From: Verrucomicrobiota bacterium
Lineage (GTDB): Bacteria; Verrucomicrobiota; Verrucomicrobiia; Opitutales; Seribacteraceae
DNA: 31,197 bases
NCBI GenBank assembly: GCA_027622665.1
Contig: JAQBYT010000045.1
Coordinates: forward strand, 1-31,197
Direction of reading: 5' to 3'
This document shows, piece by piece, positions 3,679 through 22,713 of this stretch. Positions within the stretch are counted from its first letter, which is position 1. Each line of letters begins with the position of its first letter. The translations under genes were made by a program, and so were the position numbers. Below the pieces are notes generated by a model that saw nothing but the letters and a program-made list of their open reading frames with translations, had not been told where the DNA came from and made no database searches.

Positions 3679-5145
3679 ATGTCATACCTGTCAAAAGTAC
3701 ACAACACCGACCAAGATTGGTCTCAATCCAATGCCCAGCTAGTAGCTGTCGGTATCTTCGAAGCCCAAGAGCTAACGCCTCTGGGACAAACGATCGACAA
3801 GCACCTCGCGAGCGGCATTTCAAAAGCTGTCCGATTGGGCGCCCTAACGGGTAAACCCGGCGAAGGCCGAACCTTTTATGACGACGAGCGAATAATCCTC
3901 GTTATGGGGTTGGGCAAAAAAGAGAACTTTGACTCCGAGGCCATTCGCAAGGCGGGCGGGTCCATTGCCAAAATGGCCTTGGGCATGAAAGTGACTTCTC
4001 TGGCCGTGGAATGCTTGTGCTCTTGTTCCGAGCAAAAGGATTGCCAAGCCCTCGCGGAAGGAATCGTCTTGGGCAGTTATCGCTTCAACTTTCACCGGAC
4101 AGGCAATGAAGACGGCCCCGACTTGGAGGAGGTCACGGTATTGGGAGGAGATGGGGCCGCTTTGTCAAAGGGTGCTGTAATCGCAAACGGAGTTTGCCTT
4201 GCCCGTGATCTCGGAAACCACCCTGCAAATGTGGCTACCCCCACCAGGCTGGCCGAGGAAGCACAGAGAATCGGTGATTCGGGCGGCATGAAGGTAACCA
4301 TCCTCGACCGGGAGGAAATCGTTGAACAAGGAATGGGCGCATTTGCCGCCGTGGCCCAAGGAAGTGACGAACCTCCCAAGTTCATCACCCTTGAATACAA
4401 GGGTGGTCCCGAAAATCAAAAACCAATCGCCCTAGTGGGCAAGGGTCTCACTTTCGACAGCGGGGGCATATCGATCAAGCCCTCGGGCAAAATGGATGAG
4501 ATGAAGTTCGACATGTGCGGATCAGCGGTGGTGCTGGGAGTCATGCAGGCGGTATCCATACTGAAACCGGCCTTGAATCTAATCGGGGTTATTCCCTCAA
4601 CGGAAAACCTGCTCGGAGCTAAAGCTTTCAAACCCGGAGATATTCTGAAGGCCTATAACGGTAAAACGATCGAGGTGCTCAACACCGACGCCGAGGGGCG
4701 CTTGATATTGGCCGACGCCCTCAGTTACGTAACGATGAAGCACGAGCTCGAATACGCCTTGGATTTCGCGACGCTGACGGGGGCTGTGCTGGTCGCTCTA
4801 GGTCACCACACAACGGGGATCATGGGAACCGACGAAGAGTTGATTCGCAAGGTAAAGGCATCCTCAGCCAAAACGGGCGAAAAGGTCTGGGATTTTCCAC
4901 TATGGGATGAATATTGCGAGGAAGTGAAGTCCAAGGTGGCCGACGTCAAAAACCTCGGCCACGAAAGAAATGCCGGCACGATCGCGGGCGGAGCCTTCTT
5001 AAAGGAGTTCGTCGAAAACGATACCCCTTGGGTACATTTCGACATCGCAGGCTCGGCTTGGGGTGAAAAAGAAAAGCCTTACGGTCCGAAAACGGGAGCA
5101 ACCGGCAACATGATACGTTTGGTCATTGATCTTCTTGAAATCTAG
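3679..5145 (+). CDS. pepA: Leucyl aminopeptidase (M17)
   Basis: GKGLTFDSGG, MKFDMCG, NTDAEGRL and ATLTGA signature motifs. Confidence 0.95.
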   Translation: MSYLSKVHNTDQDWSQSNAQLVAVGIFEAQELTPLGQTIDKHLASGISKAVRLGALTGKPGEGRTFYDDERIILVMGLGKKENFDSEAIRKAGGSIAKMALGMKVTSLAVECLCSCSEQKDCQALAEGIVLGSYRFNFHRTGNEDGPDLEEVTVLGGDGAALSKGAVIANGVCLARDLGNHPANVATPTRLAEEAQRIGDSGGMKVTILDREEIVEQGMGAFAAVAQGSDEPPKFITLEYKGGPENQKPIALVGKGLTFDSGGISIKPSGKMDEMKFDMCGSAVVLGVMQAVSILKPALNLIGVIPSTENLLGAKAFKPGDILKAYNGKTIEVLNTDAEGRLILADALSYVTMKHELEYALDFATLTGAVLVALGHHTTGIMGTDEELIRKVKASSAKTGEKVWDFPLWDEYCEEVKSKVADVKNLGHERNAGTIAGGAFLKEFVENDTPWVHFDIAGSAWGEKEKPYGPKTGATGNMIRLVIDLLEI

Positions 5146-5172
5146 GAATTTCGCGATGCCATATGAGAAAAA

Positions 5173-5198
5173 TGAAACTTTTACCTCCAAGCATCGTT
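5173..5198 (+). promoter_or_regulatory. Putative ECF-sigma promoter TGAAAC-N16-CGTT upstream of the His-rich protein gene
   Basis: Matches the classical ECF -35 (GAAAC) / -10 (CGT) architecture and closely matches the motif upstream of the ECF sigma gene at 8299-8324. Confidence 0.65.
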
Positions 5199-5252
5199 GA
5201 AGTAGAAAAGAAACCTATAGGCTTACGAGCCATAATCCAAAACCACATAAAA

Positions 5253-6320
5253 ATGGCTAACTTATTAAAACGACTCGGCGGAGCATGCCTCGCGGCAAGC
5301 ATCGTTACCTTCTTCGCTACCTCTGCGGTCGCCGAAGACCGAAAAGGACCACCACCCGAGAGACATGGCAAGCCCGAGGCTCGCCCCGGCGGTTCTTCCC
5401 ATGGAAAAAGCTCTTCTTCCTCGTTGAGAGATCGCTGGAACAAAATGAGCGAAAAGGAACGCGACCAAGCTCGCGAGAGAATGAAGGAATCCTGGGCTAA
5501 ACGCATGCGAGAAGCCAAGGAACGCCATAGCCGAGATGGCGATCGTGACCATGGCGACCGTGATCATCGAGGTGACCACGACAAGCGCGACGCTCAACAC
5601 GGCGGTTCTTCACACGGCAAACCCAGCGGCGACCATGGGAAATCTCATGGCAAACCCGGCGACCATCAAGGCAAACCCGAAGCTCGCCAAGGTCATTCCT
5701 CTCATGGTCATTCCTCGATCCTTTCCCGGATGAAAGACAAGTGGAACGGCATGAGCGAAAAGGAAAAAGACGCCGCACGCGATCGTATGCGGAGAGCAGG
5801 AGAAGCTTGGGGGCAACATCTTCGAGAACGTTTCTCCCAACACAAGTCCGGCGGCGACCACGGCAAACCAGCTCAAGCTAGACCCGGCGACCAGCATCGG
5901 GGTCCCTCTCACGCAGAAAAATCTCCGCAACATCGACCAAGCCCAGCGCACGGCAACCCTCCCCACGCTAAGCCCGACGGTCAGCATCGCGGTCGACCCG
6001 ATGGCCCCCCGCATCATGCAAGATCCGGTGACCGCCACGGCAACCCCCGACACGCTAGGCCCGACGACCGGCATCACGGCAGAGGCGGACCTCCACGGCA
6101 TGCAAGATCCGGTGACCGCCACGGCAAAACCCAACACGCTAGACCCGGTGGTCAGCATCGTGGCAGAGGCGGTCCTCCGGAATATGCTAGACCCGACGGA
6201 CGCCACGGCAAACCTTCGCACGCTAAGCGAGGTGGACAGCATCGTGGCAGAGGCGGGCCTCCGCAACATGCGAGACCTAATTGCAAAAGGTGTGGCAAGC
6301 AGGGCTCAAAACGCAGATAG
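5253..6320 (+). CDS. Secreted His/Arg/Gly/Pro-rich low-complexity repeat protein with two DUF3106-like helices and a C-terminal CxxC
   Basis: ATG 5253 gives a Sec signal peptide (MANLLKRLGGACLAASIVTFFATSAVA). About 37 His by hand count, internal repeats, and a strong terminator downstream. Confidence 0.85.
   Translation: MANLLKRLGGACLAASIVTFFATSAVAEDRKGPPPERHGKPEARPGGSSHGKSSSSSLRDRWNKMSEKERDQARERMKESWAKRMREAKERHSRDGDRDHGDRDHRGDHDKRDAQHGGSSHGKPSGDHGKSHGKPGDHQGKPEARQGHSSHGHSSILSRMKDKWNGMSEKEKDAARDRMRRAGEAWGQHLRERFSQHKSGGDHGKPAQARPGDQHRGPSHAEKSPQHRPSPAHGNPPHAKPDGQHRGRPDGPPHHARSGDRHGNPRHARPDDRHHGRGGPPRHARSGDRHGKTQHARPGGQHRGRGGPPEYARPDGRHGKPSHAKRGGQHRGRGGPPQHARPNCKRCGKQGSKRR
5949..6280 (+). repeat. 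Four degenerate in-frame tandem repeats of ~84 bp (28 aa, HGKPxHARPxGQHRGRGGPPxHARxxxR)
   Basis: Units begin with CACGGCAA at 5949, 6036, 6120 and 6204. Confidence 0.9.
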
Positions 6321-6349
6321 ACTTCGAGAGTAATTTATCATTCAGCAAG

Positions 6350-6378
6350 AAAGCCCGCCTGTTGGCGGGCTTTTTTTT
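6350..6378 (+). terminator. Intrinsic terminator (possibly bidirectional)
   Basis: AAAGCCCGCC-TGTT-GGCGGGCTTT hairpin whose 3' arm runs into a T8 tract. The A-rich 5' flank could serve the minus strand. Confidence 0.9.
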
Positions 6379-6673
6379 GCTCCGGAACAATCCGCTTATC
6401 CGAGGAGGATCTGAGAACTCCCAAAGGTTTCACAGCAACAGACCCATTTCTCAGAAAACGACAAGGCCAAGTCACTTAGCAAATCCGAGAACGAACAGGT
6501 GGTTCGAGGCCAAAGATTCGCAGCCTATAAACCAACTCCAATTCGGGCTTTTCTTCAACCTGTCACAAGGTTTGGAAAAAAGGTAAAGACAAAGCAAAGC
6601 TCCGCTAAGTTAAAAGGATGGATCGACCCTGAAAAGCCGAATCGCTTTGTATATCGTTCCGCCTCAACCCTCT

Positions 6674-7273
6674 TCAGCGAGCCGGTGGTGTCGGTCGGTG
6701 GTGGGGAGCATTCCTGGGTGGATCAATCGGCGGGAAGGGAGGCTTGCCGCCACGCACGGACCGACCAAGCACTCGATCCATAAAAGCTTTGCGCTCATGG
6801 GGAGGTAATCGCTGAAACTCGAGCATCTCCTTGTCGCGTTTCTTGGAAGGCAAGCTGTCCCAGTAACTACGAAGAGAATTCTGCTTGTGATGGAAATTTC
6901 GAAAAACCTCGCTTCGCCTCTGCAATGGGAGTTCGCGAAATCGTTTAAGGCGACGACGCATATCTTCACGATCCTCGGGAGACATCTTCTCCAACCGCTG
7001 TATGGTTTCTCGCATCAAGCGTAATTTTTCGGGAGGAGTGTCAAGCAAACGCCGGAGCATCTCGATTTGTTCACCACCCCGATCCGCAAGGGGGAAGTCG
7101 GATCTTGCTCCACGATGCTGCCTTTTATCTTTCTCGGGATTGGTGTCACCTCCAATTGATGAATTTTTTCGGGATGAATGCGAAGGTCCCGACTTCTCCG
7201 CCATAGTTCGAGGAAGAATGCCCAAGGTAAAAGAAATGACTATGGCGGAAAGTGAGCGAGTGAGCATTTTCAT
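6674..7273 (-). CDS. DUF3106-like basic helical protein with N-terminal signal/anchor
   Basis: Repeated (W/F/L)xx(L/M)(S/P)(P/S)xxR helices: LEKMSPEDR, FRELPLQRR, YWDSLPSKKR, FQRLPPHER. ATGA overlap with the upstream gene. Confidence 0.75.
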   Translation of the reverse strand: MKMLTRSLSAIVISFTLGILPRTMAEKSGPSHSSRKNSSIGGDTNPEKDKRQHRGARSDFPLADRGGEQIEMLRRLLDTPPEKLRLMRETIQRLEKMSPEDREDMRRRLKRFRELPLQRRSEVFRNFHHKQNSLRSYWDSLPSKKRDKEMLEFQRLPPHERKAFMDRVLGRSVRGGKPPFPPIDPPRNAPHHRPTPPAR

Positions 7274-7644
7274 AAGTCTTCCACATTTTCGGTCAACATG
7301 GCAAAGAGGTCAATTGTTTGCTCGTCGATCAAAAGAGTTTCGTCGGCCAATGGTTCGGCAAGCAGAAGGATATCGTCGAGATAGAGCTGCTTTTCGGGAG
7401 ATGCTACGGGAGACGAAAGTGGCTCTGTTTTTTCACTATGATTGAGAAAATTCGGCAAACACAAAGCCGCGACCAAACAGGCCGCAAGCGCGAGTGCCAA
7501 AGGGATGGGAAAGGAGAAGGACAAAGTTTGCCGGGGTTTCCGGATGTGACTTAGTGTCTGCTCGGTAAAAGCATGAGAGGGCACCCCCTCCTCATTGATC
7601 AAGAATCGATCAATCCGTTCGTCATTTTCAGATTCAGTTTTCAT
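7270..7644 (-). CDS. Putative single-pass membrane anti-sigma factor
   Basis: Directly downstream of the ECF sigma with an ATGA overlap (7641-7644). Short cytoplasmic N-terminus, one TM helix (IPLALALAACLVAALCL) and an acidic C-terminal tail. Confidence 0.75.
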   Translation of the reverse strand: MKTESENDERIDRFLINEEGVPSHAFTEQTLSHIRKPRQTLSFSFPIPLALALAACLVAALCLPNFLNHSEKTEPLSSPVASPEKQLYLDDILLLAEPLADETLLIDEQTIDLFAMLTENVEDL

Positions 7645-8285
7645 GATGATGTACGGTGCAGTTCGTCCAATGCCTTGCGTGCCTGTTGGCGTGCTCGGTG
7701 TATCCAAGTTTTCACTACGAATTCGGACGCCTTCATTATGCCAGCGATCTCTTTGTAGGATAATTCTCTCTGGACTCGCAGCAACAAAGCGGTGCGATGA
7801 GCTTCAGGTAAGCGTTCGAGGCAAATTTCCAAGGCCTCCTCGATGTCATCCAAAGGATTTCGCCCCGGAGTAGACAGTTTCAATTCGGCAGGATCAACGA
7901 TATCGATGGGTCGCCGCTCACGCCGCTTTATTTCGTCCAGTAATAGATTTCGGGCTATCGTAAAAAGATATGTGGAAAATTTTGCCGTAGGCTTATAGCG
8001 ATGAGCGGAACCATGAAGCTTTATGAAAACCTGCTGAGCCAATTCTTCGGAATCGGCATGGCTCCTCAACGAACGATGAAAAAAACGAAACAAAGGAATT
8101 TTCCATCTATCAATAAGGTTCGTGAGAGCAGTTTCATCCCCCGAGGCTACTCGATTCATAAGATCCGCCGACTCATCAACGGATACTTGGGAATCAATCG
8201 ATTGCTCTCGTTCCACTTTCTTAGGAATGGAACCAAAGAGACCGAGCAAGCTCACGGCACTCGAACTGTTTAAAGACAAAGTCAT
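7641..8285 (-). CDS. ECF-subfamily RNA polymerase sigma factor (sigma-70 group 4)
   Basis: Region 2 (SGDETAL...EELAQQVFIKL...FSTYLFTIARNLLLD) and region 4 (LPEAHRTALLLR...LSYKEIA...VKTWIHRAR). Exact start uncertain. Confidence 0.95.
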   Translation of the reverse strand: MTLSLNSSSAVSLLGLFGSIPKKVEREQSIDSQVSVDESADLMNRVASGDETALTNLIDRWKIPLFRFFHRSLRSHADSEELAQQVFIKLHGSAHRYKPTAKFSTYLFTIARNLLLDEIKRRERRPIDIVDPAELKLSTPGRNPLDDIEEALEICLERLPEAHRTALLLRVQRELSYKEIAGIMKASEFVVKTWIHRARQQARKALDELHRTSS

Positions 8286-8298
8286 TCATCAGGTATAG

Positions 8299-8324
8299 AA
8301 CGACGAGAAAGATAAGAAAGTTTC
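8299..8324 (-). promoter_or_regulatory. Putative autoregulatory ECF promoter GAAAC-N17-CGTT of the sigma operon
   Basis: Minus strand GAAACTTTCTTATCTTTCTCGTCGTT just upstream of the sigma ORF. ECF genes are commonly autoregulated. Confidence 0.65.
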
Positions 8325-8492
8325 GGAGAAGGCAAAATTCATGACTGAAAGAGCAAGGCATTGTAACGGCATTTAAGAAATAGACGGCAAAATTCTCTTT
8401 TGAAAAGTTTTTAAGATGAACATGTAGACTTGCTTGCTAGCGTTACATATCTAACGTAACTCAAAACCTCTTTAACCCACAACTCCCTCATC

Positions 8493-9575
8493 ATGAAAAA
8501 TAGACAAACTCTCTCTCGTCGCCACTTCATTTCATCTGCAGCAACCGCTTCGATTGCAACTCCGATGATCTTGTCGGCAAAGAAAAGCCAATCCAAACAG
8601 CTGGTGATGGGAGAAGGCGAACACCGATTCGAGGTACACCACGATTGGGCCCAGCTCCCCGACAAATTCACTTGGCAGACCACGCACAACGTCGCCGTGG
8701 ACAAAGCGGGCAACGTTTACGTCATTCATGAGGGTCGAGCCAACCTCAAAGATCATCCATCGATTTTCGTATTCGACCCGAACGGCAAGTTCGTCCGCGC
8801 CTTCGGCAACCAGTTCCAAGGTGGCGGGCATGGTCTGGAAGTGCGACAGGAGGGCAATGAGGAATTTCTCTATGTGTGCGCCTACCAGAACGTGAAGGCC
8901 TTCGCCAAGCTCACCCTCAAGGGAGAAACGGTTTGGGAAAAATACGCCCCCATGGACAGTGGAGTCTACCGCAAGGACGAAGACACCGTTCGCGTAAAGC
9001 GTTGGGGACGCGACGCCTTCCTTCCGACCAATTTCGCCTTTCTAGATGATGGAGGATTCCTGCTGGCCGACGGCTACGGTTCCTTCTGGATTCATCGCTA
9101 TGACAAGGACGCCAACTGGGTGTCCAAGTTCGGTGGTCCGGGCAAGGGGGAAGGAAAATTCGCCACGCCGCACGGCATCTGGATCGACAGACGCCCCGGC
9201 CTCGATGAAAAAGTCGTCATCTGCGACCGAGCTCATGGCACCCTCCAACTACTGACTCTAGAGGGAAAGTATCTGGAAACCATCAAGGGATACGGCATGC
9301 CCGCCAACGTAGACACTTGGAAGAACCTCTTGCTGGTGCCCGAACTTCACGCCCGCGTCACCCTCCTGAACGAAAAGAACGAAGTTGTCGCCCACCTCGG
9401 CGACGACGTCGAGGGCGTGGTAAAGAAGAAAAAAGTATCCCGCGGCAACGCAAAGACTTGGGTCGACGGAAAGTTCGTCCACCCTCACGACGCCTGCTTC
9501 GGAGCCAACGGCGACATCTACGTCGCGGAGTGGGTTAGCACAGGTCGAGTTACCAAGCTGAAGAGACTATCATAA
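8493..9575 (+). CDS. Tat-exported NHL-repeat beta-propeller, peptidyl-alpha-hydroxyglycine alpha-amidating lyase (PAL)-like
   Basis: SRRHFI Tat motif, with HGL, ADGYG, TPHGI, CDR and HPHD motifs. Confidence 0.8.
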   Translation: MKNRQTLSRRHFISSAATASIATPMILSAKKSQSKQLVMGEGEHRFEVHHDWAQLPDKFTWQTTHNVAVDKAGNVYVIHEGRANLKDHPSIFVFDPNGKFVRAFGNQFQGGGHGLEVRQEGNEEFLYVCAYQNVKAFAKLTLKGETVWEKYAPMDSGVYRKDEDTVRVKRWGRDAFLPTNFAFLDDGGFLLADGYGSFWIHRYDKDANWVSKFGGPGKGEGKFATPHGIWIDRRPGLDEKVVICDRAHGTLQLLTLEGKYLETIKGYGMPANVDTWKNLLLVPELHARVTLLNEKNEVVAHLGDDVEGVVKKKKVSRGNAKTWVDGKFVHPHDACFGANGDIYVAEWVSTGRVTKLKRLS

Positions 9576-10878: not shown

Positions 10879-10975
10879 CCAACGAACCGCTTGCACTTTC
10901 GTCTACAGTAAACTTACCACATTTCCCATTGAGAGAAACCCTCTCTTGATTTTCAGTCCACTACCCACCGAGATC

Positions 10976-12517
10976 ATGAACAAGTCCCTCATAGTGTCTG
11001 TATTTGTACTTTTGCTTGCCCTCGGTAACAAGGCCTTTGCCAACAAGCCCAACGTCATCGTCATCATGGCGGACGATCTGGGCTATGGAGACATCGGGTG
11101 CTACGGTGCCAAACCGAAGAACCTGAAGACTCCGCATATCGATCGCCTAGCCAAAGAAGGACTGCGTTTCACCAATGGGTACTGCTCGGCTTCCACCTGT
11201 ACCCCTACGCGTTACTCCTTTCTCACAGGCACCTATGCCTTTCGCGGAAAAAACACCGGAATCGCACCTCCCAGCTCGCCGTTGATCATTCCCAAGGACG
11301 TTTACACCCTTCCCGACTTGATGCAAAAAGCGGGTTACAAGACTGCCGTAGTAGGAAAATGGCATCTTGGGCTAGGAGAAACTGGAGTGGGTCCTCAATG
11401 GAATGAGGAACTCAAGCCCGGCCCGCTCGAGATCGGTTTCGATTACAGCTTTCTTCTTCCCACCACCAACGACCGCGTCCCTCAGGTTTACGTCGAGAAC
11501 CACCGCGTGCTCAACCTAGACCCCAAGGACCCCCTCTGGGTGGGCCGGAAGAAACCCAGCCCGGATCACCCAACCGGAGTCACCCATCGAAAGACCTTGA
11601 AGATGGACTGGAGCCATGGACACAACTCGACCATCCACAACGGGATTAGCCGGATCGGTTTCTATACCGGCGGGCATGCAGCCCGCTTCAGAGACGAGGA
11701 TCTGGCTGACAAATGGGTCGAGAAATCAAACGAGTGGATCGCCAAGAACAAGGATAACCCCTTCTTCCTCTTTTTCGCCTCCCATGACTTGCACGTTCCC
11801 CGTATTCCGCACGAACGCTTCCAGGGCAAATCCGGAATGAGCTATCGTGGAGACGTCATTGTCCAGCTCGACTGGTGCGTGGGCGAATTGATCAAGACCC
11901 TTAAGAAACATGACTTGGAAAAAGACACCCTAGTCGTTTTCTGCTCGGACAACGGGCCGGTCGGGGACGATGGGTACAAGGATGAAGCTCTCGAGAAGAT
12001 GGGCGACCACAAGCCCGCCGGCCCCTACGGCGGCGGCAAGTACAGCGTGCTTGAGGGGGGAACCCGCACACCCTTCATCACCTACTGGCCCGGGACCATC
12101 GAGCACGGGGTCTCCGACAAGATGGTCTGCACCATCGACTTCGCGACCAGCCTCGCCAACCACCTAAAGGTTGAAATCCCCGAGGAGGCCTGCCTCGACA
12201 GCCTCGACGTCATGGATGCTCTTCTGGGCAAAAAGGGAGCAAAGGGGCGTACCCACCTGGTCCAGCAGGACAACGGACGGGGAGGCAACTACGGCTATCG
12301 CGTGGGCAACTGGAAACTGCAACGCCACGACTCCAAGAAAAAGCGAAATGTCGTGGTCAACCAGAAACTTGCGAATTCCCCAGCACCCCGGCTGGCCCTT
12401 TATGACCTGAGTAAGGATCCACGGGAAAAAAACAACTTGGCGGAGAAGAATCCCGAGATACTTAAAAAGATGAAGAACGAATTACAAAAGATCTTGGACG
12501 ACGGGCGATCGCGCTAG
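10976..12517 (+). CDS. Arylsulfatase (Cys-type formylglycine-dependent sulfatase), secreted
   Basis: Signal peptide from ATG 10976, with ADDLGYGD, CTPTR, GKWHLG and SDNG motifs. Confidence 0.95.
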   Translation: MNKSLIVSVFVLLLALGNKAFANKPNVIVIMADDLGYGDIGCYGAKPKNLKTPHIDRLAKEGLRFTNGYCSASTCTPTRYSFLTGTYAFRGKNTGIAPPSSPLIIPKDVYTLPDLMQKAGYKTAVVGKWHLGLGETGVGPQWNEELKPGPLEIGFDYSFLLPTTNDRVPQVYVENHRVLNLDPKDPLWVGRKKPSPDHPTGVTHRKTLKMDWSHGHNSTIHNGISRIGFYTGGHAARFRDEDLADKWVEKSNEWIAKNKDNPFFLFFASHDLHVPRIPHERFQGKSGMSYRGDVIVQLDWCVGELIKTLKKHDLEKDTLVVFCSDNGPVGDDGYKDEALEKMGDHKPAGPYGGGKYSVLEGGTRTPFITYWPGTIEHGVSDKMVCTIDFATSLANHLKVEIPEEACLDSLDVMDALLGKKGAKGRTHLVQQDNGRGGNYGYRVGNWKLQRHDSKKKRNVVVNQKLANSPAPRLALYDLSKDPREKNNLAEKNPEILKKMKNELQKILDDGRSR

Positions 12518-12557
12518 GTTCCAAATAAAAAGCGATAGTTCTCCCACAAAAGCCCAA

Positions 12558-13169
12558 ATGCGTTATCTTGTTGTTGCCACACTTTGGGCAACCATCTCAT
12601 CCCATGCCACGACTAGGGGATTTGCAGATTCCGAAAACTCCTGGGAGTCATCTGAGGATTCAGGCAATGGCTGGAGACAATCCAGTCGGTTCGGACTGTA
12701 TGACGAAACCCTCACCTCATGGATCTATCATCAGGATCATGACTGGTTGTACCGACACTCGGAAAACACCGAATCGATTTGGCTATACGATCCAGTGCTT
12801 GGCTGGCTTTGGACGACTGATTCGATCTATCCTTTCCTCTATCAGTATTCGGGATAGGAGTGACTCTATTACATAGTGGGAAGCTCCAACCCCAGAACCT
12901 TTTACGATTACAATCAGTTGAAGGTCAGAAATGAGGATGCATTGAAAGTCTCCAGTTCTTCCTCGACCTCCTACGAATGGGACCCTGTTGTTCATCTCTA
13001 TCCGGGCACGGACTGGAATGTGTCCGACATTGCAGTGAATTTTCGTTGGAAACGCCTTCTCCAGCAGGACAACCAAGACCAATACGTCGCCGCCCTAACC
13101 TTCCGCTTGCAAATGAGGACACCATGCAAAACGATCCTCAAAAAGGGAGATCTACACAATGATTGCTAG
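12558..13169 (+). pseudogene. Decayed gene for a secreted protein with a Trp-rich (WIYH...GWLWT...YP.LY...WLYY) domain
   Basis: ORFs 12558-12857 and 12876-13169 are in the same frame, separated by TAG (12855) and TGA (12861) in YQYSG*E*LYYIVGSSNPRTFYDY. Coding-like remnants continue to ~13460. Confidence 0.65.
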
Positions 13170-13490
13170 GGATTTGCTTTTTTTGTGGCCGATTGAGGGC
13201 ACCGTTGAGGGGATACAGGGGGGACCTCTATCATCGTCACATGGGAATACACGCTGTACATGGCAATCCGGCACGCACTTGTTCGACGAAGACTAGGTGT
13301 TCGTGCTCGACGGCGACCCAGGTCTCGGCCTGCGTCTGACCGATCTCCACGGATACCATTATATTGACGACCAGCTTACGGGAAGAACCTCTTGCAGGTT
13401 GTTATGAATCAACCGAATCAGGTTCTTCCCTTCACCTGATCCGTTCGACAAATCTTCTTGATCAAGGAAAGATCTTACACGGCAATCTAC

Positions 13491-13520
13491 TTGCCGGAAA
13501 ACGAGCGTGCACCCTAGGAT
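13491..13520 (+). promoter_or_regulatory. Putative promoter TTGCCG-N18-TAGGAT, 7 nt before the ATG (leaderless-type)
   Basis: Recurrent motif and spacing in this window. Confidence 0.55.
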
Positions 13521-13527
13521 GGGTCGG

Positions 13528-15606
13528 ATGAAAGCCTGCCTGCTCCTCTTTCTTTTTCCCCTGCTTTTATGCGGTCAAATTCTCGACCGAACGTACGTCG
13601 TTCTCTTCATGGCGGACGACATGGGCATGGGGGACACCTCCGCCTATCAATTCTTAACCAAGAACACGGACGAGCAACAACTCAAGACCCCGGCCATGCA
13701 AAGGTTGGCCAACATGGGAATGCTCTTCACAGACGCCCATACCCCGTCCTCCCGTTGCACCCCGACTCGCTACGGTTTGCTCACAGGTCGCTATCCTTGG
13801 CGGGCCCGGATGAAGCATTGGGTACTCTTCGGAGTGCAGGGAGATCCCCTGATCGAGTCCGACCGCCCAACCCTAGGAACACTCTTTCGTTCGCAAGGCT
13901 ATGCCACCGCCATGGTGGGTAAATGGCACCTCGGTCTGCGCTATACCCGCACGGATGACAAACCCGCGGCCGGCTGGGAAGATGCGGATCTGAGTAAGAA
14001 GGTCTTCGACGGTCCATATCAGCATGGGTTCGACTTTGCCCGGTTTACTTCCCGATCGCACGGCACCTCAGGACCGGATGCCAAGATTACGGGGACAAAA
14101 ACGGGCAAGAGGAAGAAAGGGGATAGAAACACCCCAACCCAATCGATCGGGCCAGGCCACGTTCACGAAGAAACCTCCGTAAGCGCGAACGGACAAGGCA
14201 AGCAACTCCATAAGGACGGGTCCAATGCCTATGACCTTCACTCCCTCGGTAGCCGACACTCCGATCACGCCATCTCTTTTCTCGACGATCACCTCGCTGG
14301 AAAGACCTCTTCCGGGAAACCCGTCTTTCTCTATTACCCGAGCAATTCCAACCACGGTCCCTACACCCCGGACAAGAAAATCGGGGGGGAAGCAGTCAAG
14401 GGAGCCGGACGCTCCATGTCCGGTCAACCAGTCTCGGTACGTCTAGATTACATATACGAGAACGACGTCGCCCTCGGTCGCCTGCTGGATTACTTGGAAA
14501 AGACGGATGACCCTAGGCGCAAGGGAAGGAAGTTGATGGAGAACACCATCGTGATCTTCACCTCGGACAATGGAGCAGAGGTCAAAGAAAAGACAGCCAC
14601 CGGACCCGTTCGAAGCAACAAGGGGAGCTGCTACGAAGGGGGACATCGCGTTCCTTTCATCGTTTCCTGGCCCCAAGGCAAGGTGGGGGATGGAAACCCA
14701 AATACGGCAGGCAAAAAAAGCGACCAACTGATCGGCCTGCAAGATTTATTCGCCACCTTCTCGGATGTTATGGGCGTTGCCCTGCCCGACTTACGAAAAG
14801 GGAAAACGGGCGCCGAGGACAGCCTAAGCCTTCTGCAAGCATGGCGGGGCAAACAGCTTCCGAATCGACCCATGTTCTTCAACGACCACAAGGAAAGCAA
14901 GGACGGGGCCGCCTCCGCCATGCGGATCGAAAACCCCAAGGTGGGAAGTAAAACCGTTCCAGGGAAATGGAAAATATTCTTCGATGCCTCCCTACTCCGT
15001 CGAGGCAATGCCAACCCGTCCGAGCTCTACGACCTAGCCACCGACCCAAGGGAAGAAAAGAACCGCTTGGGGGACGAGAGCCTGAAACCTCTCGTCAAAC
15101 GGCTTGTTTCCATCGCCCTCCTCCACCGTAACGCATGCGGACACCGCTTCGTTCCGCTCGTGCCTAAGAAGCGAATAAGCTTTGACTGGACCAAGCCTAT
15201 ACCATCCCCCTCTCCCATAGTGATGAACCTATCAACGAAGGGCGGAAAAGCCTCCATCGACCCGGATGGCGTGGGGATTCCAGGCCTAGGATCTCCGAAG
15301 GTCGACTCAGGCCAAGGCGTGACCTTGCGCTTCCAACAGGACGTCCTCGTCGAGTCGGTCGGTTTGAAGGCAGGCAACGACGGAACATGCGGTGGAAGCG
15401 TGCGGATGGGGAAACGAGCCCCGCTCGCCATCTACTGCACGGACAAGGACAATGACGCCAAGGACCAACAGGGAATCATCAGCGACCTGGGCATCCTGAA
15501 AGCGGGCGAGACGCTTGTTCTCGAGGCTGACCCGCACTTCGGCGTGGAGTCACCGGGAAGCTGGAAACTCCAATCCCTTGTCGTTCGTCCATTGGCCCAA
15601 GAATAG
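13528..15606 (+). CDS. Cys-type sulfatase with a C-terminal extension of unknown function
   Basis: ADDMGMGD, CTPTR, GKWHLG, SDNG, YEGGHRVP and LYDL..DP.E motifs, plus ~140 extra C-terminal residues. Confidence 0.92.
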   Translation: MKACLLLFLFPLLLCGQILDRTYVVLFMADDMGMGDTSAYQFLTKNTDEQQLKTPAMQRLANMGMLFTDAHTPSSRCTPTRYGLLTGRYPWRARMKHWVLFGVQGDPLIESDRPTLGTLFRSQGYATAMVGKWHLGLRYTRTDDKPAAGWEDADLSKKVFDGPYQHGFDFARFTSRSHGTSGPDAKITGTKTGKRKKGDRNTPTQSIGPGHVHEETSVSANGQGKQLHKDGSNAYDLHSLGSRHSDHAISFLDDHLAGKTSSGKPVFLYYPSNSNHGPYTPDKKIGGEAVKGAGRSMSGQPVSVRLDYIYENDVALGRLLDYLEKTDDPRRKGRKLMENTIVIFTSDNGAEVKEKTATGPVRSNKGSCYEGGHRVPFIVSWPQGKVGDGNPNTAGKKSDQLIGLQDLFATFSDVMGVALPDLRKGKTGAEDSLSLLQAWRGKQLPNRPMFFNDHKESKDGAASAMRIENPKVGSKTVPGKWKIFFDASLLRRGNANPSELYDLATDPREEKNRLGDESLKPLVKRLVSIALLHRNACGHRFVPLVPKKRISFDWTKPIPSPSPIVMNLSTKGGKASIDPDGVGIPGLGSPKVDSGQGVTLRFQQDVLVESVGLKAGNDGTCGGSVRMGKRAPLAIYCTDKDNDAKDQQGIISDLGILKAGETLVLEADPHFGVESPGSWKLQSLVVRPLAQE

Positions 15607-15668
15607 GAACAAGAACTTGTCCACGGAAACCGTTCTCTCGGGCATCGCATAAGAAAGCTGAGCTTCTT

Positions 15669-17630
15669 CTATTCCTCAATCTCTTCGGGATTGAATACTC
15701 GAAAATAAAGCTGACGGTATACGAGAAAGTTCACCCAGTTGCGCAATGCGTATCCGCAATTCTGCAAATTCGCTTCACTGTAATCGTTTGATTTACCTCC
15801 GCTTGGGTGTACGCCGTCCCGGGAAATGAGCGTGCCATCCCATGCACCTTCCGGGCGACGCCGGATACATTCGGAATAAAAGTCCGCGAGAGGCACCTGA
15901 AGGCTCGCGGCTACTTCGCGAATAATCCGATTGGCATCGGCAACCGCCTCCTCACGACCGCGCCGAGGTGGGATTGTGTTAAGGATCGGCACGCAACCCG
16001 CAGCCATGCATTTTCGAACGACTTGCTCGAGGCGCTCGCGATAAAGCTCGGGAACTCGCCCGCCCGAAACGTCGTTCGTGCCGATCATGATAATTGCCGC
16101 TTCGGGCTTATCTCGCTCGATAACGGCATCCATGGACTTCAAAAGTTGTCCGACCTGCCATCCCGAATAATTAGCATGCTTTGGCCCTTTGTCACGAGTC
16201 CCCTTGAAGTAGTCGCGCCAGCGCATCTTGCCGGGTCGCTTGGGAAGACCGTCATCGCGGGTCAGATACCGTTGGGGCTCGTCCCATCCCATCGCCGACC
16301 AGAAGGCCATCGAATAAGTTATTGAATCCCCGAACTGGGCAACGTACCCGGGTTGACCCTTGAATCGCCGGTGAACCTTGTGCATGGCGGCCAAGATTTC
16401 GGGTGACTGAATGCCCGGCTTCAACCGCCCTGCCGCCACTCCTTCCTTGAGCGCCTTGACTCGCTCGGGAAGTTCCACCGCTTGAAGAACTGCGTGTTCA
16501 TCAAGGAAAGTCTGGCCTGCTTCCGATTTAGCTAGAGAAGTACGAACAATTTGGTCGATGTGCACATTACCAATTAGCTCGATGGCGCTGTCGCTGGTAA
16601 TATTTATTGGTGGTCCGACCACGAGGTTTCCTTTGACGAGCAACCCGTCATTTTTGAGCTGAACCAAGATCGGACGCCTCGGCCTGGGAGCCGGGTCATG
16701 AATGGTATTCCCTTCAATCCGACAGTCTCGAGTGTAACACGCCAAGATACCCGTCTCCGGGCATTGGGAGATGAAATTGTTTCGGGCCACGCAATTAATT
16801 GCTTGCAAGGGAGAATAACCAAGTGACGGGTTGCCCAACGCAATTGCCACGTCGCAATCGATGAATACGTTGCGCTCAATTTTGCAACCACGACCGTTTT
16901 CCGAAATGTAAATGCATCCACGACCCTCCCGAGTGCGTCCTTGGATGCCTAGGAAGACATTGTCGCTTATCGTCCAGTCGATCGTATTCTTGACGTCAAT
17001 CCCACCAATGTAATTCCCATTGAACGAGTCGGCCGTATCGGTCTCGTCATCCGCAAACTGTTTGGGGCGATCATTGTAAAACAGGCAATATTGAATGCGA
17101 CATTCTCGAGGTCCCCGAGCGCCTTTCTCCTTCGGCATAGCCGGCGCTTTGACGCCACGTTGCCAAACGTTCTGGATGACGCAGTTGTAAATCGTCGCCT
17201 TTTCCGCGCCTCGATCCGAATTGATCTTGAACCCGTTCCACTTGACGTTCCGGATAGTCAGATCCGCAACCGTAACGCCCTTGGCGCCCGTGATGCCTAC
17301 CAGTTCGCCATGCCGACTCGATGCACCGTCAAGAATGACCTTATGCCGATCACCGGATGCGCTTCTGAGAGTTACGTTGTCAGTCGTGATTTCAAAGTAA
17401 CGAGGCATCAAGTAATGCCCATCCGCCAGCAGTATGGCCCCCCCCGGTGCGACGTCTTTGGCCGCTTGGAACAATTCATTAACAGTTTTTACCTGAATAA
17501 CTTCACCGGAAGGCTTCGGTAGCGAAGGTGCTTTGGGAAACCAAGGTTGGTCGGGAATCCCGCCAAACCCATTCGACGCCACGACAAGAAATAAGAAAAT
17601 CGAGGTCCACCCATATAAGAAATATCTCAT
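15669..17630 (-). CDS. Secreted right-handed parallel beta-helix + SGNH/GDSL hydrolase fusion
   Basis: N-half has PbH1-like repeats (ISDNVF, IERNVF, ARNNFI, IEGNTI). C-half has FGDSITY, IGTND and DGVHP. Signal peptide from ATG 17630. Confidence 0.85.
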   Translation of the reverse strand: MRYFLYGWTSIFLFLVVASNGFGGIPDQPWFPKAPSLPKPSGEVIQVKTVNELFQAAKDVAPGGAILLADGHYLMPRYFEITTDNVTLRSASGDRHKVILDGASSRHGELVGITGAKGVTVADLTIRNVKWNGFKINSDRGAEKATIYNCVIQNVWQRGVKAPAMPKEKGARGPRECRIQYCLFYNDRPKQFADDETDTADSFNGNYIGGIDVKNTIDWTISDNVFLGIQGRTREGRGCIYISENGRGCKIERNVFIDCDVAIALGNPSLGYSPLQAINCVARNNFISQCPETGILACYTRDCRIEGNTIHDPAPRPRRPILVQLKNDGLLVKGNLVVGPPINITSDSAIELIGNVHIDQIVRTSLAKSEAGQTFLDEHAVLQAVELPERVKALKEGVAAGRLKPGIQSPEILAAMHKVHRRFKGQPGYVAQFGDSITYSMAFWSAMGWDEPQRYLTRDDGLPKRPGKMRWRDYFKGTRDKGPKHANYSGWQVGQLLKSMDAVIERDKPEAAIIMIGTNDVSGGRVPELYRERLEQVVRKCMAAGCVPILNTIPPRRGREEAVADANRIIREVAASLQVPLADFYSECIRRRPEGAWDGTLISRDGVHPSGGKSNDYSEANLQNCGYALRNWVNFLVYRQLYFRVFNPEEIEE

Positions 17631-17779
17631 ATGATCTCGGAAACTTAAATCCTTCGATCCATCAAGACTATTCCAAGCATTTCCTGACATTCGACAGGAA
17701 GGGGACCACAGAGGAACTTTAAGTCTTGAACGCCGGACTTGTTTCCAAAGAGTAAATCCCCCGTGAACACCAATCTATC

Positions 17780-19219
17780 ATGAAAAAAATCACCTTAACC
17801 ATCCTCGCCTTGCTTTTGACCTCTCTACTGGGAGGCGAAACGAAAAAGCCAAACATTGTCATCATCTTCATTGATGACATGGGCTACGGGGACGTCGGCT
17901 TCAATGGGGCCACCGGCCCGAAGACTCCGAACCTCGACCGCATGGCCGAGGAAGGAATGATCTTTTCAGACTTCTACGTCGGTTGTGCCGTCTGCTCGGG
18001 ATCAAGAACGGCTCTCATGACCGGAGCGCATTACCAACGGCTGAGCATGAACGCAGTTCTCTTCCCGCAAAGTTCCCAAGGCCTGCACCCGGATGAGCAG
18101 ACCATTGCGGACATGCTCAAGGGAAACGGATATAAAACTGCCTGCGTGGGCAAGTGGCACCTCGGGCACCTGCCACCTTGTCTTCCCACTTATCAGGGAT
18201 TTGAAAGTTACTACGGCGTGCCCTACAGCAACGACATGTGGATCGACCCGGCCAACAAACTGGCCAAGGATCTGGCGGTTCGCGAAGGCCTGACACGCAA
18301 GGAGGTGGAGGCGGGCCACAAGAAACGCAATTGGGTTCCCCTCATGCGGGGAGAGGAAGTGATCGAGTATCCCGCCAACCAGAAGACCCTGACTAAGCGA
18401 TACACCGAGGAATCGATCAAGTTCATTACCAAAAACAAGGACAACCCCTTCTTCCTCTACCTTCCCCATACCATGGTTCACCTCCCGCTCGCGGTTTCCA
18501 AGGAATTCGAAAATCGCACCGGCAAGTTGATCTGGGACGCGATCGAGGAAGTCGACTGGTCGGTAGGAGAAGTCCTTAAGACCATCAAGTCGCTCGACAT
18601 CGAAGAGAACACTCTAGTGGTCTTCACCAGCGACAACGGTGCCGCGGTCGGAAGCTCCCTCCCCCTGCGAGCCAAGAAAGGAAGCGTCTACGACGGGGGA
18701 ATCCGCGAACCAACCGTTATGTGGTGGCCGAACCAAATCCCCGCCGGCAAAACTTGTCGCGAGGTGGCCGCGTCCATCGACCTTCTGCCCACTCTGGCCA
18801 AGTTGAGCGGAGGGAAGCTCTCTGGTCGAAAGATCGACGGAAAGGACATTTGGCCGCTCATGTCAGGTAAGCCTGGAGCGAAGAGTCCACACGAGAACTA
18901 TGTCTTGATGCATGGGCCGGGAACAGTACGCAGTGGAAAATGGAAGTTCTATCCCTGGCGGGAAGGAAAAGGGGGAAGACGCCACGACAAGGCAAAGAAC
19001 CCGTCGACCGACCCCGTTCAATTGTACGACACTCTTGCCGATATAGGCGAAACCAAGAATCTCGCCGCGAAGCATCCCGATGTAGTCAAACGAATGCAAA
19101 CCGCGTACGACTCGCATATCGAGGAGATCAAGCAACACAAGCGTCCGACCCGGGGGATGAATCGCCCCGCAAAAGCATCATCACCCGAACGTCCCGGTCC
19201 CCGCAAAAAGAAAAAATGA
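17780..19219 (+). CDS. Arylsulfatase A-like sulfatase (variant CSGSR motif)
   Basis: [31 protein letters not shown] and SDNG motifs. Confidence 0.93.
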
Positions 19220-20658
19220 AAAACCTTTACCTAACTTTTCTGCTCATCCTTTCAACGGGTCTGTCAGGAAAACCCAACGTCCTCTTCATCGCCGCCGACG
19301 ACCTGTCCTGCGCTCTGGGTTGCTATGGCGACCCGCTTGCCAAGACCCCTCACTTGGACAGGTTGGCAGCATCCGGGGTTTGCTTCCTCAAGGCATACAA
19401 TCAATTGCCTCTTTGCAACCCGACCCGGGCCTCGGTGATGACGGGACTGCGCCCCGACACGATCAAGGTCTACGACTTAGACAGGCATTTCCGGGACGAG
19501 GTTCCACATGCCGTCACCGTGTCCCAGCAATTCATGAAGCATGGCTGGTGGGCCGGACGGGTGGGCAAGATCTATCACTACAACGTGCCCGCCAGCATAG
19601 GAACGGACGGCTTCGACGACCCGTCTTCCTGGCAAAAAACGGTCAACCCGAAGGGGCGCGACAAAACGGACGAACACCTCGTGTTCAACGCCGAACCCCA
19701 CCGCAAGATAAGCGGTGCCCTCAGTTGGCTGGAGGCCGACGGCAAGGACGAGGAGCAGACCGACGGCATGATCGCGACCGAGGCAATCAAACTGATGGAG
19801 CAACGGAAGGACAAGCCCTTCTTCATCGCAGCCGGGTTCTTTCGTCCACATACCCCCTACGTCGCACCAAAAAAGTATTTCGATATGTATCCATTGGAGA
19901 ACATGCGCCTGCCCTATGCCCCGGCGGATGATCGCAATGACATTCCTACCGCCGCCTTCGCCCACAACTGCCCCGTACCACATTACAATTTAGACGAACT
20001 GACCTGCCGCAAGGCCATGCAAGCCTACTACGCCTGCGTATCCTTCATCGACGCTCAGGTCGGACGAATGCTCGACGCCCTCGACCGCCTCGATCTGTCG
20101 GACAATACAATTGTCGTTTTCTGGAGCGACCATGGCTACCACCTGGGCGAACACAACGGGATCTGGCAGAAGCGCACACTCTTCGAACAAGGAGCCCGGG
20201 CGCCCCTCATCATCAAGGCGCCAGAGGGCAAGGGTAATGGGCAAGCCTGCCGGCGCATCGTCGAGTTCGTGGACCTCTACCCCACCTTGACAGGACTCGC
20301 GGGTATCCCCACCCCAAAAGCTGTCGAGGGTCGCTCGCTCGTGCCACTGTTGAAAAACCCGCTGACCAAATGGGACGGTCATGCCATTACTCAAGTCCTG
20401 CGACCGGCGGATGACCGACTGTCCGAACCTGTCATGGGGCGAAGCATCCGGACCGAACGCTGGCGGTACTCGGACTGGGGAGAAGGCGAGCATGGCGTCG
20501 AACTGTACGACCATCACGCCGATCCAATGGAATTCAACAACCTCGCCCTCCAGCCGGACAAGCGAAGCAAGGCGGTTATGAAAAACCTCCGCAAACTGCT
20601 GGTCAAGAAAGCCAGCGGGAAGGTACCCCAGACTCCCTTTAATCCGAAGAGGCTCTAG
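19216..20658 (+). CDS. Iduronate-2-sulfatase-like sulfatase
   Basis: True start is the ATG at 19216 (ATGA overlap, signal peptide). ADDL, CNPTR, GKIYH, RPHTP and SDHG motifs. Confidence 0.93.
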
Positions 20659-21078: not shown

Positions 21079-22713
21079 TTGAAAAAGCCAAGACATCACG
21101 ATCTAGACGCCTTGCGGGCATTTGCCATGCTGCTTGGGATCGCACTTCACGGTTTGCTTTCGTTCATCCCAATTCCGATCTGGCCGGCCCAAGACGTGAA
21201 TCAGAGCGAATTCTATGGAATACCTTTGATGTTGATCCACGGCTTTCGGATGTCCCTGTTCTTTTTTGTCAGCGGATTCTTCACTATGATGATGTGGCAA
21301 AAAAGGGGAACGCTTTCCCTACTCAATCACCGATTCAAGCGAATCGTGATTCCGTTCTTCCTCTGCTGCGTCATCCTCGTGCCCCTGCAAAACAAAATGG
21401 GCTGGATCAATGAGTGGTGGAATGGAGAGGAGGAACTTTCCTCCGAAGGAAATCAGGACCAGATCTCAGAAAGCAATCAATCCATCGGAGCCAAAAAGAA
21501 AACGGCCAAAGACATTTGGGAAGCCTCACGAGCCGGGGACTTGGAAGAGTTGTTATCGTTTCTGGGCAGCGGCATTGACCCGAACGAAAAGGATGCGAAG
21601 CAAATAACCCCCCTGCACTGGGCTGCTGGGACCGGACAGATTGAAGTGATGCATGCCTTGATCGACGCCGGAGCCGATGTCAACGCGAGGGACGGTTCTC
21701 GCTCAACCCCGCTTCATTTCGCAGCTTTTCTGGGACAACCAAAAAGCGTTCGAATTCTTCTAAAAAAGGGAGCGGACTCAAAGCTCAAGAACCAGTACGG
21801 ATCGGTCCCCCTGTGGAGTGCCTACACGGATAAAAAAACCACGAAGTCGACTGCAGAGGACTTCCTTAACCTCGCCGTTCAATTCGATGAAATCAAGAAA
21901 GGAAGAAAAGAAGTGATTCGGATTCTTGGCGGGAAACCTGCCCAAGAAAAGGATGACTGGTTTGCCCGGACCTACATCTTGAACGGTCAATTCATAACTC
22001 ATCACTTTTGGTTCCTTTACGACCTGCTCTACCTGATCGTCGGATTCGTCGCCTTGGCCGGCCTTCTCAAATTCCTTCCCTTTCCCCGATTGCTCCCTTG
22101 GCTTGCCGAGTCTCCTCTGCGCCTGCTTTGGCTCATCCCCCTAACTTGGTGGGTTCAGTATTGTATGCGTGAGAATTTCGGGCCCGACACCACGGTGACG
22201 CTCGAACCCGACTGGATCAAACTGGGCTATTTCGCGATCTTCTTCGGATACGGGGCAATTTGCTTCGGACATTCCGGGTTTATCGAAAAGGCGGGACGCC
22301 TTTGGCCCGTTTATTTTGTATTGGCTGTGCCCGCCTTTATCATCGGCCTGAGCCTAATGGAGGCCAAGGGGATGGAACACCAGAGGGAAATCGCCTCCTT
22401 CGCCGGGGCTGCCTATGCTTGGCTAATGATCCTTGGGATGATCGGGCTCTTTCGAAGGTTCTTCTCCAAGAAAAACTCGAAGGTTCGCTACTTGTCGGAT
22501 TCCGCCTACTGGCTCTATCTCGCTCATATCCTAGTCCTTCAAATTATTCAAATCTGGGTTGCGGAATGGCCCCTGCCCAGTTTGCTCAAGTTCGTCTTCG
22601 TATGCATAACCGCAACTGGTCTGCTGTTGCTTTCCTATAGACACCTGATTCGTTTCACATGGGTCGGGACGATGTTGAACGGCAAAAGACACAGGGCGGA
22701 TGGAGCAGGCTAA
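21079..22713 (+). CDS. Acyltransferase-3 (OpgC/MdoC-like) membrane protein with inserted ankyrin repeats
   Basis: RHHDLDALRAFAMLLG, HGFRMSLFFFVSGFF, HFWFLYDL and SDSAYWLYLAH motifs, plus ankyrin TPLHWAA/TPLHFAA repeats. Confidence 0.9.
   Translation: MKKPRHHDLDALRAFAMLLGIALHGLLSFIPIPIWPAQDVNQSEFYGIPLMLIHGFRMSLFFFVSGFFTMMMWQKRGTLSLLNHRFKRIVIPFFLCCVILVPLQNKMGWINEWWNGEEELSSEGNQDQISESNQSIGAKKKTAKDIWEASRAGDLEELLSFLGSGIDPNEKDAKQITPLHWAAGTGQIEVMHALIDAGADVNARDGSRSTPLHFAAFLGQPKSVRILLKKGADSKLKNQYGSVPLWSAYTDKKTTKSTAEDFLNLAVQFDEIKKGRKEVIRILGGKPAQEKDDWFARTYILNGQFITHHFWFLYDLLYLIVGFVALAGLLKFLPFPRLLPWLAESPLRLLWLIPLTWWVQYCMRENFGPDTTVTLEPDWIKLGYFAIFFGYGAICFGHSGFIEKAGRLWPVYFVLAVPAFIIGLSLMEAKGMEHQREIASFAGAAYAWLMILGMIGLFRRFFSKKNSKVRYLSDSAYWLYLAHILVLQIIQIWVAEWPLPSLLKFVFVCITATGLLLLSYRHLIRFTWVGTMLNGKRHRADGAG

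Follow-up and report, generated by a model that had tools for sequence, protein, structure and literature searches.

Does a sigma factor operon that converges on the gene for a His-rich protein form a closed circuit with that gene, or is the His-rich gene one of several targets scattered over the genome? The question is raised by a Verrucomicrobiota locus at positions 5173 to 8325 of the window, the 31,197-nucleotide (nt) stretch analyzed here, which makes up contig C41 in a draft genome of 4.5 Mb (assembly GCA_027622665.1; G000 in the comparisons) and whose proteins have close homologs labeled Opitutales or Opitutae. The interval between pepA (3679-5145) and an NHL-repeat gene (8493-9575) is occupied by one plus-strand open reading frame (ORF), which ends at 6320, and by three ORFs on the minus strand. 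The original prediction described three ATGA-overlapping minus-strand genes facing a plus-strand His-rich gene, with a common extracytoplasmic function (ECF)-type promoter on both units. ORF analysis confirmed this layout, with overlaps at 7641-7644 and 7270-7273, and the two promoters read TGAAAC-16-CGTT and CGAAAC-17-CGTT. The principal features are the following (aa, amino acids):

5173-5198, plus strand: ECF-type promoter motif of the His-rich gene; -35 TGAAAC(TTTT) at 5173-5178, 16-nt spacer, -10 CGTT at 5195-5198
5253-6320, plus strand: His/Arg/Gly/Pro-rich protein, 355 aa, likely exported
6674-7273, minus strand: DUF3106 protein, 199 aa, likely exported
7270-7644, minus strand: putative anti-sigma factor, 124 aa
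7641-8285, minus strand: ECF sigma factor, 214 aa, with Sigma70_r2 and r4_2
8299-8325, minus strand: ECF-type promoter motif of the triad; -35 CGAAAC(TTTC) at 8325-8320, 17-nt spacer, -10 CGTT at 8302-8299

Sequence comparisons make it somewhat probable that the locus holds a conserved, autoregulated ECF module governing a small number of scattered genes for basic, low-complexity proteins that are likely exported and would protect the envelope under stress. Gene order, conservation, the promoter motif, and the joint presence or absence of that motif with the sigma gene were all directly seen. The regulation is better supported than the original prediction could show, and the locus is not the self-contained four-part system that was proposed: of 18 informative ortholog loci, only 2, both from this genus, have the His-rich gene beside the triad, and the motif also stands at other genes. 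It had been suggested that conservation of four-gene synteny and promoter be checked; the triad and the motif are conserved, the adjacency of the His-rich gene is not.

The ECF sigma/single-transmembrane (TM) anti-sigma/DUF3106 triad is conserved across the order. The sigma factor matches Pfam Sigma70_r2 and r4_2, plus TIGR02937, above cut-off and has regions 2 and 4 only, as expected of an ECF. It is present in 21 of 41 genomes, this one included, at E ≤2e-37, and the 20 loci other than the present one made up our first set of orthologs. A DUF3106 gene follows the anti-sigma gene in 17 of these 20, and two others are cut by contig ends. At the phylum level, the sigma factor was matched in 45 of 251 genomes at a strict E of 1e-42; 30 loci were taken, 26 of them absent from the first set, and 25 of the 26 have a DUF3106-profile match downstream. 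The product of 6674-7273 matches DUF3106 (PF11304) above cut-off (E 1.7e-7), as do 15 of 16 third genes that were compared with PF11304. The putative anti-sigma factor matched no Pfam family. It consists of a 44-aa N-terminal part, one TM segment (~aa 45-63; a single hydrophobic 19-mer, Kyte-Doolittle 2.47 at aa 45), and an acidic, hydrophobic C-terminal tail, and the last 35 residues carry 6 to 12 D/E and 0 to 2 K/R in 17 of 17 orthologs. The DUF3106 protein is likely exported, judging by its hydrophobic N terminus, and ends in a Gly/Pro/Arg tail. Its core (aa 61-168) is predicted to be helical and is net basic, a property of 14 of 16 orthologs. Fold searches with its structure model gave no Foldseek match at E 0.001 and a best Z of 4.4, and a Protein Data Bank sequence search with the third gene and the anti-sigma factor found no relative. 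A complex prediction for anti-sigma aa 66-124 with DUF3106 aa 58-175 scored 0.02 and was not used as evidence. Many anti-sigma orthologs (L027, L030, L031, L032, L036, L037, and L040) carry two to four tandem copies of an N-terminal sigma-binding-like motif, and G039 has an additional sigma copy accompanied by a DUF3106 gene of its own (C102:473-2027).

The pattern YG[ACT]AAC(TTTT)-16/17-NG[TA]T occurs upstream of every one of the 20 first-set sigma genes, against 0.23 expected. A scoring matrix built from the 17 sites that lie upstream of sigma genes in other genera gave a score of at least 13 in 20 of the 26 new sigma loci, none of which was used for training. Genome-wide, the matrix ranked the site of the His-rich gene third (21.6) and that of the sigma gene 28th (17.3). 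A score of 20 is reached at only 6 of 9.03 million positions in this genome, a chance of ~1.3e-4 per 200 nt, and among its 11 sigma-like genes the motif lies upstream of this one only. The triad is thus likely autoregulated, as originally proposed, given the motif at every first-set ortholog. The sigma ATG follows the end of the -10 element by only 14 nt (8285-8299, minus strand), so that the mRNA would be almost leaderless; several sigma orthologs have a similarly short spacing, with the start 36 to 46 nt past the motif start.

The same comparison points to the His-rich gene as a likely target of this sigma factor, and here too the earlier proposal gained comparative support. Once a weak match in G011 (E 3.5e-4, signal peptide only) had been excluded, the gene was counted in 11 of the 41 genomes, which all belong to one family. 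Its upstream region scores 20.0 to 21.9 in 8 of the 11 and 13.1 in G013, against 4.6 and -0.8 in G001 and G007. Searches of the latter two turned up neither a sigma nor a DUF3106 ortholog, the two known sites of the triad are empty in both, and in G001 the end of the His-rich gene directly precedes the NHL gene. Two further genomes, G005 and G008, keep the motif before the His-rich gene while no sigma gene was found; the NHL gene is also missing, and an assembly gap fits because their His-rich genes run off contig ends. The motif is kept before the His-rich gene in three genera. A very unlikely alternative is that this motif is read by a different ECF sigma factor or arose by chance. Similar -35 elements do occur in other groups, such as TGAAACTTT in ECF30 in the part of the ECF classification available to us (PMC7826278), there are other sigma-like genes in this genome to read them, and in G033 the strict pattern also precedes a second, different ECF gene (L054, C12:74381), a possible cascade. 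Against this stand the low chance rate given above and the loss of the motif only where this sigma factor is missing, though G001 and G007 each retain four other sigma matches.

Though a likely target, the His-rich gene is no constant neighbor of the triad. In G009, G013, and G080 the His-rich gene and the sigma gene are on separate contigs. At 7 of the 20 loci nrdB neighbors the triad; in this genus folC and nrdB are adjacent with no triad (9 of 9 genomes); and the gene preceding the His-rich gene is similar in G013 and G080 (a DUF7133 gene in the latter). All this makes it likely that the convergent arrangement arose late, by rearrangement in a single lineage, after a likely translocation.

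A dispersed regulon is likely, judging from conserved upstream sites, and would comprise the His-rich gene, EF-hand proteins, a DUF1549/1553 protein, and, in relatives, Metal_resist proteins. Other high-scoring intergenic sites in this genome precede two EF-hand-type genes (a 159-aa product with Pfam matches and a 96-aa product with no Pfam match), two DUF1549/1553 genes, and genes for YHYH, DUF481, a 2148-aa protein, and FlgF. The promoters of the two EF-hand-type genes lie near 45842 on C4 and near 25351 on C48. Seven candidate targets were compared, in five genomes each. For the 159-aa EF-hand gene, the motif is retained in each of 3 sigma-bearing genomes (17.9 to 18.2 in G003, G006, and G013) and in neither of 2 without the sigma gene (6.3 in G001 and 1.4 in G007), and the motif is kept before the 96-aa gene in 2 of 2 sigma-bearing genomes. 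The 96-aa product resembles the Asr model weakly (E 7.7e-5; 23.5 bits, cut-off 50). The strict pattern, run on 12 genomes, also precedes EF-hand genes in G005, G009, G033, and G080. In G080, which belongs to another family and was found by protein search, the motif independently precedes sigma, His-rich, EF-hand, DUF1549, and sulfatase genes. Three near-identical promoter copies occur in that genome, before the His-rich gene, before a DUF1549 gene, and at a contig end (C50:35558, C164:8016, and C185:10950). The 2148-aa protein (C6:11420-17866, minus strand; L095) is likely exported, has no Pfam or NCBIfam match, and has a tandem paralog in G003.

Several points weigh against an autoregulated module with a dispersed regulon. 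The motif pattern was written after the first 20 sites were seen, 6 of the 26 new sigma loci lack the motif, and 18 of the 20 later motif-positive loci come from one family. In two sigma-bearing genomes the strict pattern was no more frequent than its reversed control (5 versus 11 in G036 and 1 versus 4 in G040). G001 and G007 are draft genomes, 79% and 97% complete, and may represent a single loss. G026 has the sigma and anti-sigma genes without the third gene. Among sigma-bearing genomes, the motif is kept before the C61 DUF1549 gene in 2 of 3, before the YHYH gene in 1 of 2, and before the gene for the 2148-aa protein in 1 of 3; the C59 DUF1549 gene (0 of 3) and FlgF (0 of 2) were dropped as conserved targets. 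A crude test for signal-peptide enrichment among targets fell short of significance (7 of 12 versus 34%, p 0.07); its gene caller dropped both EF-hand genes. Finally, in the Cupriavidus ECF37 triad rpoR-rsrA-rsrB, rpoR is RpoD-driven and was not autoregulated in a lacZ test, according to the available part of PMC13492112.

What the His-rich protein does was approached through its sequence. Translation likely starts at 5253, because orthologs begin MKIxNL there and the promoter falls inside the longer ORF; for these reasons a start at 5163 was rejected. An A5249G change in several seawater contigs restores an ATG two codons upstream, the one that orthologs use. Further features of the gene are the following:

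5253-5333, plus strand: likely Sec signal peptide, aa 1-27, ending in SAVA (heuristic; hydrophobic N terminus kept in 11 aligned homologs)
5421-5534, plus strand: helical repeat 1, aa 57-94, with a W-x-x-M-S-E-K-E-R motif, weakly DUF3106-like
5718-5837, plus strand: helical repeat 2, aa 156-195
5847-6275, plus strand: tandem repeats of ~84 to 90 nt encoding His/Arg/Gly/Pro units; lengths vary among orthologs
6282-6293, plus strand: C-terminal CxxC (CKRC)

The product contains 10.4% His, 14.9% Gly, and 14.4% Arg, and is likely exported, given its N-terminal hydrophobicity and an AxA-type site. It is predicted to be mostly disordered, the structure model giving two confident helical units (aa 57-94 and 156-195) and 233 of 355 residues with a predicted local distance difference test score below 50. 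Helical repeat 1 contains 10 of the 12 invariant columns. The CxxC is kept in G004, G001, P0001, P0002, and P0004, reduced to one Cys in G003, changed to CxxxxC in G013, and absent in G080. The helix motif said to be common to both exported proteins is real but weak: PF11304 matched the His-rich protein at E 0.0086 (17 bits, gathering score 24.3) and its G080 homolog at 16.9 bits, both below the gathering score, and a profile-profile comparison gave a probability of 61% over 25 columns. The protein-collection search returned only 5 + 4 close homologs, and at the order level the gene occurs in 4 of 201 genomes, one of them outside the family. There was no NCBIfam match (Asr model included), no usable ESM Atlas match for aa 27-205, and no match in a plasmid search.

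It is unlikely that the locus is a metal-stress circuit, with a sigma factor responsive to Ni, Co, Zn, or Cu and the His-rich protein serving as a metal sponge in the periplasm. The mature protein does have 35 His residues by region counts besides its CxxC, longer homologs reach 8 to 18% His, the motif is found ahead of the YHYH gene here and of Metal_resist (PF13801) genes in two relatives, G009 and G013, and the ECF37 sigma factor RpoR is connected with Co/Ni resistance in the available part of PMC7826278. However, none of the invariant columns of the His-rich protein is a His, its net charge at pH 7 is +39, none of nine candidate targets scanned in this genome is an efflux pump, and a single-query search of this genome found no Metal_resist homolog. 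The CnrX-type metal sensing to which the original prediction drew an analogy is not supported. In CnrX, metal is bound by His42, His46, Glu63, His119, and Met123 (PMC6851896, seen in part), whereas no His or Cys column is conserved across 16 DUF3106 cores, in which a single Met is kept in 15.

The charge of the protein suits another explanation, quite unlikely in our estimate, in which the sigma factor governs a developmental or attachment state and the basic His/Arg protein binds extracellular polyanions such as sulfated glycans, lipopolysaccharide, polyphosphate, or DNA. An isoelectric point of 11.2 and RGRGG repeats in the mature protein count for it, as do the motif before genes for DUF1549/1553 proteins and sulfatases in G005, G009, and G080 and the sulfatase-rich window. 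However, the sulfatase orthologs of this genome have no motif at their own starts (-4.0 and -4.8), and no outer-membrane export signal was identified.

Comparison with known systems places the module between two ECF groups. The ECF249 promoter is CGCAACTTT (-35) and GTT (-10) in the available part of PMC7826278, which also gives an anti-sigma factor at +1 with one or two TM segments, a Verrucomicrobia share of 3.39%, and EF-hand genes near subgroup s3. All 20 sites fit this as YG[ACT]AACTTT-like and G[TA]T, and the anti-sigma factor here is at +1 with one TM segment. The group description in that part of the source names neither a DUF3106 at +2 nor a regulon or studied member, and the part of the supplement available contains no Opitutales name. 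We regard the module promoter as ECF249-like, a filing by promoter and taxon only. In ECF37, 99% proteobacterial, a DUF3619 gene is followed by a DUF3106 gene and the -35 element is TGTCAACC (PMC7826278, same part). The module resembles its member RpoR-RsrA-RsrB of Cupriavidus metallidurans in the order of sigma factor, single-TM anti-sigma factor, and DUF3106 protein, and in the -10 CGTT. However, none of 17 anti-sigma orthologs matched DUF3619 (or an RskA-like family) at E 0.05, and the sites here do not match TGTCAACC. The module thus combines an ECF249-type promoter with an ECF37-type third gene.

The likeness to CnrH-CnrY-CnrX (ECF291) lies in a sigma factor, a short single-pass anti-sigma factor with a cytoplasmic part of ~45 aa, and a helical periplasmic partner. 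As far as the sources available describe that system, its cnrYXH order, efflux output, promoter, and membrane-anchored CnrX with a His/Glu/Met site differ from what is found here. There is no adjacent resistance-nodulation-division efflux operon, the window neighbors being pepA, NHL, and aminopeptidase P genes. A structure search with the DUF3106 model, made with the four-helix fold of CnrX in mind, gave no match of any kind at Z ≥5. The ECF111 and ECF290 triads also have a TM anti-sigma factor at +1 and a helical stress protein at +2 (PMC7826278, same part), but that protein is of the LTXXQ or heavy-metal-resistance family, in other phyla, and the ECF111 promoter is unlike the motif here.

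Two systems offer parallels for the effectors, each from a partly available source. Asr, a stress protein of the Escherichia coli periplasm, is intrinsically disordered and has chaperone activity (PMC10746267); the His-rich protein fits it in composition and predicted disorder without matching its model, and Asr belongs to the RstAB two-component system rather than to an ECF (PMC13425233). In Caulobacter, the periplasmic EF-hand protein CaBP is tied to the ECF SigV in calcium limitation and acid response (PMC13171946). That pair, however, is adjacent, under SigT with -35 GGAAG/CC, has no anti-sigma factor identified, and has no DUF3106 or His-rich partner in the part available. Literature searches, outside whose coverage most subscription papers lie, found no paper on the module or its His-rich effector; DUF3106 appeared in two Helitron papers and the ECF classification supplement and ECF249 in the classification paper only, with no functional study of either. 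The sigma/anti-sigma/DUF3106 architecture is already catalogued, and the surprise is moderate. What the analysis adds is a promoter motif, a short target list for which presence or absence serves as control, and an effector family not described before, and the role of such triads is therefore directly testable.

Our best guess, by analogy, is that envelope or cation stress is buffered by basic Asr- or Spy-like proteins. From its architecture, the 124-aa protein would hold the sigma factor at the membrane, and from architecture and charge the net-basic DUF3106 helices may cover the acidic, hydrophobic periplasmic tail of the anti-sigma factor, for which the capping logic of RseA/RseB is the model. 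Envelope or cation stress might then titrate DUF3106 away and free the sigma factor. The His-rich, EF-hand, and Metal_resist-family proteins could act as polycationic holdases or ion buffers, much like Asr or Spy. An elaborated version of this scheme, in our view quite improbable, is a charge-titration envelope sensor in which the basic DUF3106 helices cap the acidic anti-sigma tail, exported polycationic and EF-hand proteins form the response kit, and two DUF3106-like helical units of the His-rich protein re-cap the anti-sigma factor, a feedback that its His-rich linkers would make responsive to pH or metal. If this is true, DUF3106 would acquire its first function, and a regulon of ECF249 type would be described for the first time.

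The space between the convergent units holds one further feature:

6347-6378, no strand assigned: GC-rich stem-loop with a T-run on the plus strand and TTTCTT on the minus strand, a likely terminator

Bidirectional action of this stem-loop is possible; in G003 and G004 the stem is preserved and the loop altered. The following ~300 nt, from the terminator to the DUF3106 stop codon (6380-6673), show 91% mean column identity in G003 and G004, with no long common ORF noted and no Rfam match, and a scan of 5000-8600 gave no Rfam match above gathering score. Contigs from 8 of 8 seawater/marine RNA libraries cover parts of the His-rich gene and triad, which indicates presence in the libraries rather than transcription; 6456-6659 had no contig cover in any of the eight runs, contigs showing neither ends nor levels. 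Downstream of the module, 10946-20658 contains four sulfatase genes and a beta-helix/GDSL gene, and 21079-22713 (plus strand) encodes an acyltransferase-3 domain protein carrying inserted ankyrin repeats.

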